Below are positions 33,380-38,169 of a stretch of DNA of 39,258 nt, piece after piece. A program made the position numbers and the translations under genes. Positions within the stretch are counted from its first letter, which is position 1. Each line of letters begins with the position of its first letter. The notes beneath the pieces were generated by a model. It did not search any database. It was not told the DNA's origin and saw only the letters and a list, made by a program, of their open reading frames with translations. Source of the stretch: a virus (taxonomy: Duplodnaviria; Heunggongvirae; Uroviricota; Caudoviricetes); the IMG/VR virus record IMGVR_UViG_2519899560_000023, one strand, 5' to 3'.

Positions 33380-34372
33380 ACCACAGAAAAGGGTGCTGAA
33401 TGCACCCTCTGAATTATTCCGGTTTTTCCGGCCAGGGAATCGCCTGGTAATGCCCCTCACTGGCAATATCATTAAAGTGCATTTCTTTAAGCTGTCGGAT
33501 ATACGCCATCCAGCGCGTCAGCTGTAATTTATTTTCATCGCTAATCATGTCCAGTTTTAATTCCGTTTTCCAGTCATCCACAGTTTCGTTGGCTTCCTGG
33601 AGCAGCGATGAGCGGCGCTTTTCAGCAACCGTCTTCCAGTTTACCGGCACCTTTGATATCAGGCCATCAGAAAACTGCCAGTTACCGTCAATATTCACAC
33701 CTTCCGGCAGTTCGTCCACTTCAACAACAGTAAAACCTGCCGGATATAAAGCAGAGACATCTTCAGCAACAGAGCAGATAATACCCGTTACAGGCGAAAT
33801 ACAGAGTTTGTATTTCTTTGTGAAAAGCGGGATAGATTCATAAAAATCCCTTCCGTCCTCACTCTGGAAATACTGAACATCCTCACCATAGGGTTTGTGT
33901 TCCGGGTAATATCGTTTTACGTTAATAAGCTCCATTATTTCACCTTGTTTTTGTTGAAAAGACAAAATCATCATATATTTATTCAGATAATCTGTTTTTT
34001 GAACTACTGCACTTTTATGCGCTGGAAGCTGTTTTCCACGAACCATCTATCAGAAACTGAACAGGTCGATAATATGCGGTTACCGTTGCATTACCATCAC
34101 CAGCGACATCAAGCCCTGTAAGTACGCATCCGTCAGGAACCTCAAAAATATTATATTGCATTCCAATCGTTGACCTTGAACCTCTTCGAATGCTTTGAAC
34201 ATAACGTGAGTCAGCCACAGACTGCGTCATCCCCGATGTAATATTTATATCCTGCGTTCCGTCAAATGGGACACCATTAATATTTCTTGGAGTGGCGAGT
34301 TTATTCGCTGCAACAGCCGCTCCGTTCGATGGCAGGGCATTCGCGGCCCTGTTTACAGTATCCCGTAAACCA
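32999..34372. other. invertible tail-fibre segment (G-segment analogue, about 1.4 kb)
   Basis: Bounded by inverted gix-like sites; contains Sv (+), one tail fibre assembly gene (-) and a promoterless alternative S' tip (-); gin adjacent. Confidence 0.7.
33414..33935 (-). CDS. tail fibre assembly protein (U'-like chaperone)
   Basis: ATG at 33933-33935 preceded by AAGGTG; track ORF extends to 34046; about 174 aa. Confidence 0.7.
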   Translation of the reverse strand: MELINVKRYYPEHKPYGEDVQYFQSEDGRDFYESIPLFTKKYKLCISPVTGIICSVAEDVSALYPAGFTVVEVDELPEGVNIDGNWQFSDGLISKVPVNWKTVAEKRRSSLLQEANETVDDWKTELKLDMISDENKLQLTRWMAYIRQLKEMHFNDIASEGHYQAIPWPEKPE

Positions 34373-34377
34373 AGGTT
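34015..34377 (-). CDS. promoterless alternative tail fibre C-terminal cassette (S'v)
   Basis: Minus frame open from stop at 34378-34380 to 34015; translation NLGLRDTVNRAANALPS...GVPFDGTQDINITSGMTQSVADSRYVQ... parallels the S C-terminus. Confidence 0.7.
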   Translation of the reverse strand, partial: NLGLRDTVNRAANALPSNGAAVAANKLATPRNINGVPFDGTQDINITSGMTQSVADSRYVQSIRRGSRSTIGMQYNIFEVPDGCVLTGLDVAGDGNATVTAYYRPVQFLIDGSWKTASSA

Positions 34378-34385
34378 TCAGGGAT
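34360..34385. other. gix/hix-like recombination site (right)
   Basis: ATCCCGTAAACCAAGGTTTCAGGGAT, near-palindromic 26-mer about 55 bp upstream of gin. Confidence 0.65.
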
Positions 34386-34439
34386 GCCGTATATCTGCTT
34401 TAAAAGGCCTTTCCACCTCTTTTTAAGGAAGGTAAATAC

Positions 34440-35000
34440 ATGCTGATTGGCTATATACGCGTATCAACAAATGACCAGAACACAGGTTTACAAAGAAATG
34501 CGCTGGAATGTGCAGGATGTGAGCAGATTTTTGAAGATAAAATGAGTGGTAAAACGACACAGCGGCCGGGACTGAAGCGGGCACTGAAGAAACTAAAACC
34601 CGGTGACACACTGATGGTCTGGAAACTGGACAGGCTGGGGCGCAGTATGCGCCACCTTGTTGCGCTGACAGATGAATTACAGCAACAGGGGATAAATTTT
34701 CGTAGTCTTACTGACAACATTGATACGTCAACCCCCATGGGGCGCTTCTTTTTTCACATAATGGGTGCGCTGGCAGAAATGGAGCGTGAATTAATTGTCG
34801 AACGGACACGGGCTGGTCTTGCAGCTGCCCGTGAAAGGGGACGAACCGGCGGCAGACCCCGTCGTCTCACGCAGGAACAATACGAGCAGGTCGGGCGTTT
34901 ACTGGCCGGGGGTGTCAGTCGAAGACAGGTGGCACTTATTTTTGATATCGGCCTTTCAACCCTTTATCGTTATTATCCTGCGAGCGTTTCGGAAAAATAA
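34440..35000 (+). CDS. gin: serine DNA invertase (Gin/Hin/Cin family)
   Basis: 186 aa; N-terminus MLIGYIRVSTNDQNT with catalytic-Ser context; C-terminal HTH; adjacent to invertible segment. Confidence 0.9.
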   Translation: MLIGYIRVSTNDQNTGLQRNALECAGCEQIFEDKMSGKTTQRPGLKRALKKLKPGDTLMVWKLDRLGRSMRHLVALTDELQQQGINFRSLTDNIDTSTPMGRFFFHIMGALAEMERELIVERTRAGLAAARERGRTGGRPRRLTQEQYEQVGRLLAGGVSRRQVALIFDIGLSTLYRYYPASVSEK

Positions 35001-35099
35001 GACGCTCTCTTTGTTGGGCCTTTACTGAATTAACGCAAAATGGCGTTTATCGGTCTGTGGATATGATAATTCAGTTTATTCAGGAACAGGCTGATTATT

Positions 35100-37139
35100 A
35101 TGACGTCCAAATGGGTTCAACTATCATCAATGCCCGGAAACTTTACTGTTAAAGTTTCCGGTGGTACAGCGGCATTTCTTGAGGCTCCCTTTCCTCCGGC
35201 CGAAACAAAAGGAGGAATGACATTTGCTGACTGTCTCATCAGTTTTAATACACGGGATTGCCTGTGGGTAAGGCCAGTATCCGGTGATCCGAGTGTGGAA
35301 ATTACCGGAGCGGGTATTGGTGCGGTCATTCCGTTAAGTGCTGATGTTGCCGGTACTGCTGAACCGTCAGACTGGGATAATGCTGAAACACATACCCGTC
35401 CGTCAGGAAATGAAACTGCTTCCAGCTCCCCTTCCTGGTATTACGTGGTGGTTCTTGCTGGTCAGTCAAACGGTATGGCTTACGGTGAAGGTCTGCCACT
35501 GCCGGAGACATATGACCGCCCCGAACCGCGTATTATGCAGTTAGCCCGTCGCAGTACAGTCACGCCGGGAGGTAAAGCCTGTCAGTATAACGACATCATT
35601 CTGGCCGACCACTGTCTGCATGATGTGCAGGATATGAGTGGAAAAAATCACCCGAAAGCGGATGTGGCTAAAGGGCAATATGGCACCGTGGGTCAGGGGC
35701 TTCACATTGCCAAAAAACTGCTGCCGTTTATTCCGGCAGATGCGGGGATTCTGCTGGTTCCCTGCTGCCGTGGTGGTTCTGCATTCACGGCGGGTGCTGA
35801 CGGCACGTACAGTGACAGCACGGGTGCTTCAGAGGACTCAGCCCGCTGGGGTGTGGATAAGCCGCTGTATAAGGACTTAATCAGCCGGACAAAAGCGGCA
35901 CTGGCGAAGAACCCGAAAAACCGCCTGCTTGCTGTGGTGTGGATGCAGGGCGAGTTTGATATTGATGCGAAGCCGACGGAGCATTCCGCGCTGTTTCTGG
36001 CGATGGTGGAAAAATTCCGCGCAGACCTGGCTGAACAGGCGGAACAGTGTACCGGTGGCAGTGCTGCTGGCGTTCCGTGGATTTGTGGCGATACCACGTA
36101 TTTCTGGAAACAGAAAAATGAACCGGCATACCAGGCAATCTATGGCGGCTACAAAAACAAAACAGATAAAAACATTCATTTCGTTCCATTAATGACAGAT
36201 GAAAATGACGCGAATGTACCCACCAACAATCCGGCAGAAGACCCGGATATTGAATCCATTGGTTATTACGGCTCAACGTGGCGTAACAGTGCCGCCACCT
36301 GGACATCTGCGGACCGGGCCAGCCATTTCAGTTCATGGGCACGTCGTGGGATTATTTCCGACCGTCTGGCCACGGCAGTTCTGACTCATGCGGGGCGAAC
36401 CACAGTAAAAGCCGATGTTCCATCTTCTGAAACTGAAGCACCAGTGCCGTCACCTTCAGAAACTGAAGCAGTAACCACAACACTGCTGTCTTATCGTGTC
36501 AGTGAGTCAGAAGGAAATCTGAAAGCCCAGGGCTGGGAGCCGGCTGGCGGTAAAGCTGAAATTATCAGTGATGCAGGAGGCACAGGTGGTAAGGCAATGA
36601 AACTGACCAAGGAAACAGGTAAATCATCCTGGTATCTGGATCATGATGCCGGTACTGGTGCTGAACTGCTGAAAAATGGTGGTTTAATCAGTTGTCGTTT
36701 TAAAGTACCTGGCGACCTGGTGGCAAACCAGTATGTCATGGGGCTTTACTGGCCGGTTTCCTCTCTGCCGCAGGGTGTCACCCTGACAGGGGATGCAGGG
36801 AATAATCTGCTGGCATCGTTCTACATCCAGACAGACGCAAAAGACCTGAATGTGATGTACCACAATGCAAAAGTGGCAACAAATAACCAGAAACTGGGAA
36901 CCTTTGGTGCATTTGATAATGAATGGCATACGCTGGCCTTCCGTTTTGCAGGAAATAACAGCCTTCAGGTTATTCCGGTTATTGATGGTCAGGATGGTGC
37001 CGCGTTTACCCTGACGCAGTCACCAGTAGGAACTTTCCCGGTGGACAAACTCCGCGTAACGGATATCACAAAAAATGCAACTTACCCGGTGCTGATTGAC
37101 AGCATTGTGGTGGAAGTGAAAAAAGCGGTAACAGAATAA
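35100..37139 (+). CDS. SGNH/SASA-family carbohydrate O-acetylesterase-like protein (NanS-p-like) with N- and C-terminal extra domains
   Basis: 679 aa; VVLAGQSNGMAYGEG block, then LLVPCCRGGSAF and VVWMQGEFD blocks and DRASHFS; C-terminal about 230 aa beta-rich. Confidence 0.6.
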   Translation: MTSKWVQLSSMPGNFTVKVSGGTAAFLEAPFPPAETKGGMTFADCLISFNTRDCLWVRPVSGDPSVEITGAGIGAVIPLSADVAGTAEPSDWDNAETHTRPSGNETASSSPSWYYVVVLAGQSNGMAYGEGLPLPETYDRPEPRIMQLARRSTVTPGGKACQYNDIILADHCLHDVQDMSGKNHPKADVAKGQYGTVGQGLHIAKKLLPFIPADAGILLVPCCRGGSAFTAGADGTYSDSTGASEDSARWGVDKPLYKDLISRTKAALAKNPKNRLLAVVWMQGEFDIDAKPTEHSALFLAMVEKFRADLAEQAEQCTGGSAAGVPWICGDTTYFWKQKNEPAYQAIYGGYKNKTDKNIHFVPLMTDENDANVPTNNPAEDPDIESIGYYGSTWRNSAATWTSADRASHFSSWARRGIISDRLATAVLTHAGRTTVKADVPSSETEAPVPSPSETEAVTTTLLSYRVSESEGNLKAQGWEPAGGKAEIISDAGGTGGKAMKLTKETGKSSWYLDHDAGTGAELLKNGGLISCRFKVPGDLVANQYVMGLYWPVSSLPQGVTLTGDAGNNLLASFYIQTDAKDLNVMYHNAKVATNNQKLGTFGAFDNEWHTLAFRFAGNNSLQVIPVIDGQDGAAFTLTQSPVGTFPVDKLRVTDITKNATYPVLIDSIVVEVKKAVTE

Positions 37140-37144
37140 AAAAA

Positions 37145-37173
37145 TCCCGCCGGTCATGATATGGCTGGCGGGA
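37145..37173 (-). terminator. hairpin followed by T-run on minus strand
   Basis: Stem TCCCGCC/GGCGGGA with about 15-nt loop; minus strand continues ATTTTTTTATT. Confidence 0.4.
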
Positions 37174-37188
37174 GCTACCTAACCCATA

Positions 37189-37218
37189 AAGGAAAATAAA
37201 AATACTCCCGAAGGAGTG
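37189..37218 (-). terminator. hairpin with tetraloop and T-run on minus strand
   Basis: Minus strand ACTCC-TTCG-GGAGT followed by ATTTTTATTTTCC. Confidence 0.45.
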
Positions 37219-37285
37219 GTTATCAGTCGCTTCGATGTTTTTACCCGATAACGAATTATGTAGTCAATATCAAAGGTAAGGTTAT

Positions 37286-37468
37286 ATGACATTCGTTCAT
37301 ACAATGCTGCTTTATTTCTGCGCTGTGGTCAGTGCGTTATATCTGGTGAGCGGTGGTTATAAGGTCATCAGAAATTATATTCGCCGTAAAATTGATGATG
37401 CGGCAGCTGAAAAACTCAGTAAAACAGCACAGGCACCGTCATCCCCAAACGACCCGACCCCGCTCTGA
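37286..37468 (+). CDS. small membrane protein (one N-terminal TM helix, hydrophilic tail)
   Basis: 60 aa; MLLYFCAVVSALYLVSGG hydrophobic core; AAGGTAAGG upstream. Confidence 0.5.
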   Translation: MTFVHTMLLYFCAVVSALYLVSGGYKVIRNYIRRKIDDAAAEKLSKTAQAPSSPNDPTPL

Positions 37469-37503
37469 TAACGGGGCAATATACCTGCAAAAGGAGAATA
37501 TTC

Positions 37504-37749
37504 ATGCCAGAGATTAAAGGCACGGTTACTGAAGAGCTTGTCAAACAGGCACTTTATTCTGAAGAAGTGAACCGCGTGCTGAAGGCGCAGGTTCGCAAGG
37601 ATTTTGAGGCACAAATCGACGCATATGTTGATGAAGTGCTGGCCCGAATGGTTGGCCGTTCTCCGGCTGAAAACAGCACGGAAAATGATCCTCAACCCGT
37701 AGAGCAACCAGAGCCGGTTCAGCCCGGAACTGACGGTACTATGATGTAA
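37504..37749 (+). CDS. small acidic helical protein
   Basis: 81 aa; strong SD AAAGGAG 7 nt upstream; followed by terminator. Confidence 0.55.
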   Translation: MPEIKGTVTEELVKQALYSEEVNRVLKAQVRKDFEAQIDAYVDEVLARMVGRSPAENSTENDPQPVEQPEPVQPGTDGTMM

Positions 37750-37758
37750 CAATACCGA

Positions 37759-37790
37759 CCGGCAGGTTTCCCTGCCGGGTGAGTTTGTTA
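37759..37790 (+). terminator. rho-independent terminator after small-protein cassette
   Basis: Stem CCGGCAGG/CCTGCCGG, loop TTTC, then GTGAGTTTGTT. Confidence 0.55.
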
Positions 37791-38066
37791 ATGCACGTTT
37801 TGTGTATTTTCCCTCCTGGGAGAACAGGCAGGACATATCAGCATCCTGAAACAGGAAGCATTTTTGGGTTTGTATGTCTTGCCATTTTGAGATCGAGAAC
37901 GGCGATAGATGAGCTGTAAGGGAGTCTTACAGGCAGGGCAAACAGGCTCTTTCATCCATGATAAAGATCTCCTTTTTATGCATCTCTGCTTTACAGGAGA
38001 CCGGGGAATATCATAGGATACGCCACGAGCTCGAAGTAAAGCATTGATGCAAGTTTTTACAGATTG

Positions 38067-38105
38067 ACCCAGCATAGTTCCAGCTATGCTGGGTTTCACT
38101 TTTAT
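38067..38105 (+). terminator. rho-independent terminator upstream of com/mom control region
   Basis: Perfect 10-bp stem CCCAGCATAG/CTATGCTGGG, 6-nt loop, then TTTCACTTTTATG. Confidence 0.65.
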
Positions 38106-38169
38106 GTAGTATCCTGTTGATTTGAAACATACTACATATACGCGTGATCCTACCTTCACTGTATAAAAA

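Follow-up and report, generated by a model that had tools for sequence, protein, structure and literature searches.

A conserved convergent RNA gene, most likely that of the Hfq-binding small RNA EcOnc37, in a mobile esterase block of a Mu-like prophage

Background

Is a gene for a small membrane protein, preceded by hairpins that face the opposite direction, one half of a toxin-antitoxin pair? This question is raised by positions 37,140 to 38,066 of a 39,258-nucleotide stretch of viral DNA (Caudoviricetes; IMG/VR virus record IMGVR_UViG_2519899560_000023), the whole of which is called the window throughout this text. A preliminary description, made from the sequence alone, had pointed there to two small plus-strand open reading frames (ORFs) of 60 and 81 amino acids (aa), closed by a plus-strand terminator and preceded by two leftward hairpin-plus-T-run elements, and had proposed an antisense RNA in a type I toxin-antitoxin-like arrangement or, alternatively, an insulator. 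Type I loci (hok/sok, tisB/istR-1, ibs/sib) do share with the window a gene for a small protein with a single transmembrane (TM) segment beside an oppositely oriented small RNA (sRNA) gene.

Here we present a computational analysis of this locus, which leads to a different assignment. The two leftward "terminators" are most likely the stem-loops of one prophage sRNA of about 90 nt, which binds Hfq, has been published as EcOnc37 and is of the same kind as PasA and PasC. We consider it likely that the region, together with this RNA, makes up the distal part of a mobile accessory block ("moron") consisting of a NanS-p-type esterase gene, the convergent sRNA gene and the genes of a DUF1378 and a DUF826 protein. 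The RNA is already catalogued as EcOnc37 and its kind is known, namely convergent Hfq-binding prophage sRNAs located at moron sites, so that the new points are modest: the assignment to a positional class with PasA, PasC and EcOnc33, the promoter-terminator scaffold shared within it, and the finding that a Mu-like phage carries the block. A speculative toxin-antitoxin call is thereby replaced by a concrete annotation of the promoter, ends and strand of EcOnc37.

Results

Minus-strand RNA gene in the spacer between the esterase and DUF1378 genes

Window positions 33801-39200 (5,400 bases) are 100% identical to Sp18, a Mu-like prophage of Escherichia coli O157:H7 Sakai, and the coordinate in NC_002695.2 equals the window position plus 5,040,338. 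In the annotation of Sp18 the invertible tail-fibre segment is followed by the invertase gene gin, the esterase gene, the DUF1378 and DUF826 genes, a minus-strand ORF, com and mom. The first gene of the mobile block is that of the NanS-p-like esterase (35100-37139, plus strand; 679 aa; Pfam SASA 6.5e-12 and DUF6645 2.4e-69; PHROG 143), which ends with a TAA stop codon at 37137-37139, and a spacer of 146 bp separates it from the DUF1378 ORF. This spacer holds two hairpins that are followed by a U-run solely when read leftward; the coordinates of the two elements, near 37145-37218, had been given correctly in the preliminary description.

Upstream of these hairpins, on the minus strand, there is a -35 hexamer TTGACT (37262-37267), whose TTGAC is invariant in 9/9 and in 15/15 aligned family members, and, after an 18-nt spacer, a -10-like hexamer TAAAAA (37238-37243), which belongs to a conserved A-rich block at fixed spacing. 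A minus-strand promoter had been expected at about 37290-37350; a promoter exists, but it is placed at 37267-37238, thus in the intergenic spacer and not in the ORF, and for this reason the 60-aa ORF and its Shine-Dalgarno (SD) sequence both lie outside the RNA. This sigma-70-type promoter, lying wholly within the spacer, would drive a leftward RNA of about 90 nt. A stem-loop with a UUCG cap would stand first in it, then a single-stranded linker rich in U, and last a GC-rich intrinsic terminator, the U-tract of which runs out on the stop codon of the esterase gene.

The predicted RNA (about 90-95 nt; 37138-37232, minus strand; EcOnc37 of Sakai Sp18) is placed by a start rule, by covariance models and by an Hfq crosslinking (Hfq-CRAC, crosslinking and analysis of cDNA) peak, with its 5' end at about 37232/37231 and its 3' end at 37138-37144. 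When the start is set at the 36th-37th base from the -35 box, the same rule predicts 743498 for PasA and 1290908 for PasC, each 1 nt off the published 5' end, and for an EcOnc33-like locus it gives an RNA of 72 nt, to be compared with about 71 nt by northern blotting.

Four elements follow one another in the RNA, all on the minus strand. Stem-loop 1 (37204-37217; ACUCC-UUCG-GGAGU), supported by folding and called by the terminator scan, is the second "terminator" of the preliminary description. After it comes a U-rich linker (37193-37203), in which AUUUUUAUUUU is followed by CCUUUAUGGG, a candidate Hfq-binding or seed region; in the predicted sRNA the linker reads UUUUCCUUUAUGGG, which is a candidate seed. 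The terminator hairpin itself (37145-37173), recognized from sequence and folding, has a 7-bp GC stem (UCCCGCC/GGCGGGA), an A.C mismatch and further pairs, and was missed by the terminator scan because its loop exceeds 8 nt. It is followed by the U7 tract (37138-37144), the final two bases of which correspond, on the other strand, to the AA in the stop codon of the esterase gene. The whole 3.7-kb region is rich in terminator-like sites, with 12 of them against 3.6 +/- 2.1 in shuffled sequences.

The scan also indicated a weak plus-strand terminator-like site at 37213-37233, which we rejected: it relies on G.T pairs and has no part in the plus-strand minimum-energy fold, and the -10 box of the minus strand, read in complement, accounts for its T-run.

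Conservation of the scaffold among related loci

The DNA located 3' of the esterase stop codon was taken from 90 related loci, representing 46 distinct sequences. The 37145-37173 hairpin with the A/T run straight after the esterase stop is kept in 89 of the 90 loci. Nearly all the distinct sequences begin with an A7-8 run at the stop and a GC-rich hairpin with CCGCCAG or a close variant, continue with a variable stretch of 40-80 nt, and end with GTCAA, the complement of the TTGAC of the -35 box, right before the SD of DUF1378. On the minus strand every variant has the same order: TTGAC(A/T) is followed after 17-18 nt by an A-rich hexamer, and the RNA, 65-110 nt long, closes with a strong, GC-rich terminator whose U7-8 borders directly on the stop codon. 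The U-rich/CCAU motif is kept in strain M3 and in the lambdoid variants. In relatives the place of stem-loop 1 is taken by another small tetraloop hairpin, after which a U-run is not constant, and stem-loop 1 is therefore read as the 5' stem-loop of the RNA followed by an Hfq-type U-rich linker; as the EcOnc37 peak lies downstream of it, stem-loop 1 is at most a partial terminator. The best reading of the two "terminators" thus makes them parts of a single small RNA, namely its 5' stem-loop and its terminator. The minus-strand RNA gene is conserved, separately promoted and equipped with a terminator, and a leftward RNA ending within 37138-37218 is very likely real.

Covariance models were built without the window-type sequence. 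A first alignment of 15 variants misaligned the long-loop terminators, so the models were constructed from a better-behaved subset and iterated, the first of them from eight lambdoid sequences. With this first model the best match in the window was 37133/37134-37267 (minus strand), at full length, with 20.2 bits and an E-value of 0.11 in a search of 187 kb; after one iteration, in which three significant matches from outside the window were added, the same span scored 26.6 bits (E 0.017), while the next-best window matches to the models reached 10-15 bits. PasC-type, EcOnc52 and EcOnc33-like loci were picked out by the same model at their exact boundaries, with marginal scores of 13-23 bits (the EcOnc33-like locus L090, 21.3 bits, E 0.15-0.18). 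In the alignment fitted to the model, pairing in the terminator helix is complete (100%), and 4 of its 7 pairs are changed on both sides. Since these scores are marginal, position and scaffold appear to unite the class more than sequence does. Rfam models gave no match at gathering thresholds in the whole window, those of AgvB and AsxR included, and an E-value search of 36900-38400 returned only chance-level hits, nse_sRNA and Spot_42 shapes over 37139-37253 with E-values of 7.5-10.

Two minor observations concern single lambdoid copies of the locus. In L017 (about 2290-2323) the -35 box, invariant elsewhere, is mutated, with TTAAC for TTGAC, and may represent an inactivated sRNA promoter. In phage ArgO145 (L004, 4863-4988) RefSeq places a 41-aa plus-strand "hypothetical protein" across the terminator and body of the sRNA; this ORF has probably been called in error over an RNA gene.

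Published RNAs at the same position

The window RNA, PasA, PasC, EcOnc52 and EcOnc33 have their location in common: each follows immediately on the 3' side of a SASA/NanS-p esterase gene and is encoded on the other strand. In enteropathogenic E. coli (EPEC) E2348/69, PasA runs on the minus strand from 743499 to 743415, in a "> < >" arrangement between the esterase gene and the next gene, that of a holin, and PasC (1290909 to 1290832) abuts the esterase stop. Both are Hfq-dependent, northern-verified and have many trans partners in RNA interaction by ligation and sequencing (RIL-seq); regulation in trans by base pairing is known from RIL-seq for PasA, PasC and PasD. The northern probe of EcOnc33, an RNA of about 71 nt, falls in the esterase/DUF1378 spacer of Sakai Sp6.

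EcOnc37 was reported as an orphan Hfq-binding site and predicted sRNA on the minus strand of Sp18, 5077340-5077410, which passed in 5 of 5 experiments and for which a Rho-independent terminator was predicted (Tree et al. 2014). Transferred with a coordinate offset of +128, this Hfq-CRAC peak corresponds to about 37130-37200 of the window (minus strand) and covers the terminator hairpin and the U-rich linker. The offset from old coordinates to NC_002695.2 amounts to 102-140 at 1.557 Mb, as found with the EcOnc33 probe, and is near 0 at 1.18 Mb; the value of +128 sets the 3' edge of EcOnc51, at 2.237 Mb, exactly at the end of a U-tract, and with any offset between 102 and 140 EcOnc37 still overlaps the terminator. 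The old Sakai chromosome was 128 bp shorter than the present one of 5,498,578 bp. A practical point for other users is that the coordinates of Tree et al. 2014 are shifted against the current Sakai record, the shift being about 0 at 1.18 Mb and about +128 at 1.56 Mb and beyond, and most peaks will be misplaced on that record if they are reused as they stand.

The resemblance of the window RNA to PasA and PasC, whose homologues in enterohaemorrhagic E. coli are EcOnc51 and EcOnc52, extends beyond position to the TTGAC -35 box, the A-rich -10 at the same spacing, and the architecture of the RNA (79-85 nt in PasA/PasC, GC-rich terminator with GCCAG in the 5' arm, U7-8); moreover, the PasC-type unit abuts the esterase stop exactly as the window RNA does. 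The sequence of the RNA body, however, is unrelated, and the PasA/PasC prophages are lambdoid, carry no DUF1378/DUF826 genes and have a holin gene or an insertion sequence (IS) element as the next gene, whereas the window element is a Mu-like transposable phage. EcOnc33 of Sakai Sp6 is closer in setting: it occupies the minus strand of the esterase/DUF1378 spacer with the same promoter and terminator layout, and its neighbours are DUF1378, DUF826 and holin genes, as in most loci, but it has another RNA body and terminator arm (GCCGCCGG) and resides in a lambdoid prophage. AsxR and AgvB are also short Hfq-binding RNAs at a fixed prophage position; they are oriented convergently to the late operon, and their terminator part is conserved while the 5' part varies. 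Unlike the window RNA, these convergent sRNA pairs of the PR' moron site lie upstream of the esterase gene and are 51-60 nt long, AsxR being placed 282 bp 3' of stx2AB. EcOnc37, EcOnc33, PasA and PasC can thus be linked as one positional class, in which a scaffold is tied to the NanS-p esterase gene and the RNA bodies differ. By analogy with PasA, PasC and EcOnc33, the RNA would bind Hfq and act mainly in trans on other mRNAs.

Prophage PP2 of E2348/69 (L006, 2764-3035) and Sakai Sp12 (L010, 2417-2688) possess two tandem sRNA units after the esterase gene, PasA and a PasC-like unit with its own TTGACA box that abuts the stop codon. This second unit has its terminator where a "minor" 236-nt 3' end of PasA has been published (743264).

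Distribution of the block

The 751-bp region was found at a coverage of at least 80% in 172 of 5,426 complete E. coli genomes, among which cattle strains and strains of E. coli that make Shiga toxin (STEC) predominate. A blastn search of this region against phages matched only two records, both with the same Mu-like insert, and yielded no lambdoid relative. The block as such is common to lambdoid and Mu-like prophages, with mosaic joints, and its usual place is the late operon of lambdoid phages of the Shiga toxin (Stx) type, just upstream of the holin gene: 65 of the 90 esterase loci have the RNA locus, DUF1378, DUF826 and holin, and another 9, of the Mu-like type, have com, the minus-strand ORF or both. 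Esterase homologues are found downstream of stxAB in Stx phages. In the lambdoid Stx phage ArgO145 the esterase-DUF1378-DUF826 trio is located between stxAB and the holin gene, and in PhiR5_2 the same trio stands upstream of holin. The gene order of the window is that of the nanS-p to S region of Stx phages, but there the block precedes the lysis genes and is downstream of Q/PR', while the window block neither precedes lysis genes nor lies downstream of Q/PR' and sits between gin and com/mom. An RNA-plus-gene block has in this way passed from lambdoid phages to a transposable one. The literature on the nanS-p to S region offers one passing mention only, of "proteins of unknown function containing DUF826 or DUF1378", and literature searches for EcOnc37, EcOnc51, EcOnc52 and ECs4993-4995 returned nothing.

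One mosaic joint is visible at about 37490, between DUF1378 and DUF826. Rightward of it the DNA is 98-99% identical in several genomes; to the left, as in the Mu-like variant L003 (6001-6361), they have another esterase gene and a DUF1378 allele of 56% aa identity, the spacer measures 57 bp and the sRNA unit is absent.

The two small protein genes

Both ORFs, with the SD sequences and the properties attributed to them earlier, were confirmed, and they are genuine conserved genes. The DUF1378 gene (37286-37468, plus strand; 60 aa; PHROG 494) matches Pfam PF07125 (1.2e-38, 131.5 bits) and the DUF826 gene (37504-37749, plus strand; 81 aa; PHROG 311, 6.6e-30) matches PF05696 (2.8e-15, 56.7 bits), both above the gathering cut-off of 25 bits. 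Their SD sequences are AAAGGTAAGG at 37272-37281 and AAGGAG at 37491-37496, respectively. The DUF1378 protein has a single N-terminal hydrophobic/TM segment (residues 3-21; Kyte-Doolittle 19-residue mean 2.0), an isoelectric point (pI) of 9.3 and a basic C-terminal part, whereas the DUF826 protein is acidic (pI 4.3; 16 D+E) and has no hydrophobic segment. Ratios of nonsynonymous to synonymous substitution rates (dN/dS) against three diverged homologues were 0.12-0.25 for DUF1378 and 0.16-0.33 for DUF826, and so both are under purifying selection. A large protein database contains 54 relatives of the DUF1378 protein, from Escherichia, Shigella and Citrobacter, every one named "DUF1378 family protein", and for DUF1378, DUF826 and the minus-strand ORF alike no meaningful match came from NCBIfam, PADLOC or the sequences of the PDB.

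The promoter scan found no plus-strand promoter-like site in 37140-37285, and in lambdoid phages DUF1378 is an internal gene of the late operon; the two genes would be read through from the esterase transcript, with no promoter of their own. Among the 90 esterase loci DUF826 accompanies DUF1378 in every locus that carries the latter. The DUF1378 protein is predicted to be membrane-anchored with a basic cytoplasmic tail and the DUF826 protein to be acidic and soluble, and they probably act jointly, as an accessory pair of the esterase/lysis region. A protein-protein role is suggested by the purifying selection on the DUF1378 tail together with the constant company of DUF826. Because the two genes remain with the esterase gene also where the block is far from lysis genes, they appear to be tied to the esterase block and not to the holin gene.

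Discussion

Several observations weigh against the assignment of the window RNA to EcOnc37 and the PasA/PasC kind. Position 6 of the -10 box is not T and the consensus promoter scan made no call. Sequence similarity to PasA/PasC is weak, with the model scoring PasA-type loci at 13-18 bits and the Sakai Sp12 locus at 13 bits; the E-values of the models are marginal and roughly calibrated, promoter DNA is included in the model, and the alignment used for the pair counts was fitted to the model and so leans towards it. The EcOnc37 peak comes without a northern blot in Tree et al. 2014, and its mapping depends on an inferred coordinate offset. Finally, the fold of the minus-strand RNA hardly beats its shuffles (z -1.8), and the plus-strand version of the terminator hairpin is more stable (z -4.4), which means that selection may partly act on the esterase mRNA. 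On the plus strand G.U wobbles complete 13 continuous pairs, and the 93-nt stretch folds at -32.6 kcal/mol, with none of 200 shuffles as good; on the minus strand these wobbles turn into A.C mismatches, and the diverged M3 copy displays the same asymmetry.

If the hairpins formed only a transcriptional insulator, they would merely halt antisense or read-through transcripts at the border of the module, and the short RNA would be functionless. Two tandem leftward hairpin-plus-U elements at the end of the block, facing a minus-strand gene with a promoter-like site at 38174-38147, count in favour of this, and convergent terminators at moron sites are a described prophage feature. However, an insulator would need no promoter, and every variant has a dedicated, invariant one right upstream of the hairpins; the RNAs made at this position in other prophages are abundant, stabilised by Hfq and equipped with many partners; and the EcOnc37 peak maps to this locus. 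We regard pure insulation as unlikely. As a side role of the sRNA gene, a barrier to antisense transcription is plausible, and the terminator of the RNA would also keep antisense transcription out of the esterase gene.

There is a similarly small chance that the Hfq-binding RNA has a second function in cis, in which a duplex with the esterase-DUF1378 intercistronic RNA, its full complement, through cleavage or a block of a standby site, would uncouple both small proteins from esterase expression. Were it so, a trans-acting sRNA would exert type I-like control, and a self-contained RNA-plus-protein module would have moved from lambdoid to Mu-like phages. Duplex predictions between the RNA and the initiation regions of the minus-strand ORF and com, as well as the 3' end of the esterase gene, were no better than those with shuffled sequences.

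This brings us back to the type I toxin-antitoxin-like pair, with the DUF1378 protein as a membrane toxin and the leftward RNA as an antitoxin that pairs in cis with the same intercistronic RNA and blocks translation or induces cleavage. The DUF1378 protein has the expected size and its one TM segment, the RNA is perfectly complementary to the plus-strand transcript 55-148 nt upstream of the DUF1378 start codon, and the RNA locus and DUF1378 occur together in most sampled loci. Some type I antitoxins do act far upstream of the ribosome-binding site, as IstR-1 does at the tisB standby site, which also counts in favour of this reading. Nevertheless, the RNA (37138-37232) ends about 40 nt before the SD and 54 nt before the ATG, its promoter lies in between, and it overlaps neither the DUF1378 ORF nor the SD; the duplexes predicted with the translation-initiation regions of DUF1378 and DUF826 were again no better than shuffles. 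The two partners are also separable, since Sakai Sp4 and Sp12, as well as PP2 and PP5 of E2348/69, carry the RNA locus but lack DUF1378/DUF826, while in the Mu-like variant L003 the DUF1378/DUF826 pair directly follows the different esterase gene across its short spacer, with no RNA unit. The window thus differs from known type I loci in the missing overlap with the ORF or initiation region, in the DUF1378 gene having no promoter of its own and being placed inside the late operon of lambdoid phages, in the separability of the partners, and in the presence of DUF826 wherever DUF1378 is found. The NCBIfam and PADLOC searches, which matched no defence or toxin families, and the constraint on the cytoplasmic tail of a protein always travelling with DUF826 speak against a toxin as well. 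With the RNA clear of the ORF and SD, and each part found without the other, the type I reading is not supported: of what was proposed in the preliminary description the leftward RNA stands, backed by the conserved promoter and the EcOnc37 peak, and the antitoxin role does not. The block is probably not a toxin-antitoxin pair, and we hold the type I model to be very unlikely.

Least probable of all, and only barely to be entertained, is that the main hairpin works chiefly on the plus strand, stabilising the esterase mRNA at its 3' end or serving there as a site of processing, its minus-strand terminator look being secondary; this would fit the fold asymmetry described above, but the plus strand has no U-tract, the stem is fully Watson-Crick in most lambdoid variants and hence equal on both strands, the A7-8 run is always on the side that makes a minus-strand terminator, and a plus-strand role is in any case compatible with an sRNA of the EcOnc37 kind and does not exclude it.

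Other features of the region

An 8-bp GC hairpin is located after DUF826 (37759-37778), between the convergent stop codons at 37749 (DUF826) and 37788 (minus-strand ORF); it was identified by sequence and folding, and the terminator scan made no call. A clean plus-strand terminator had been assumed at this place. The hairpin is indeed there, but its T-run (GTGAGTTTGTT) is weak, with at most 4 T per 8-base window, the U-tract is weak on both strands, and it folds alike on both of them (-22.1 and -22.5 kcal/mol, z about -3.6). Seated between two convergent stops, it is better described as a bidirectional shared hairpin. The lambdoid counterparts of the hairpin have a canonical T6 run.

The convergent 154-aa ORF (37788-38252, minus strand; PHROG 26524) belongs to the context and is not a member of the cassette. 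It carries a C-terminal CPAC...CPAC zinc-ribbon-like motif, is frameshifted in L003 and in strain M3 is no longer than 86 aa. A strong plus-strand terminator-like hairpin (38066-38095, 13 pairs) and promoter-like sites overlap the N-terminal half of the ORF, and the real minus-strand gene may be shorter than the annotated ORF. Upstream of com/mom there is a cluster of GATC sites at 38146, 38181 and 38192, followed by 38303 and 38316 (38146-38195 and 38303-38319), which recalls the Dam-methylation-controlled mom promoter region of phage Mu.

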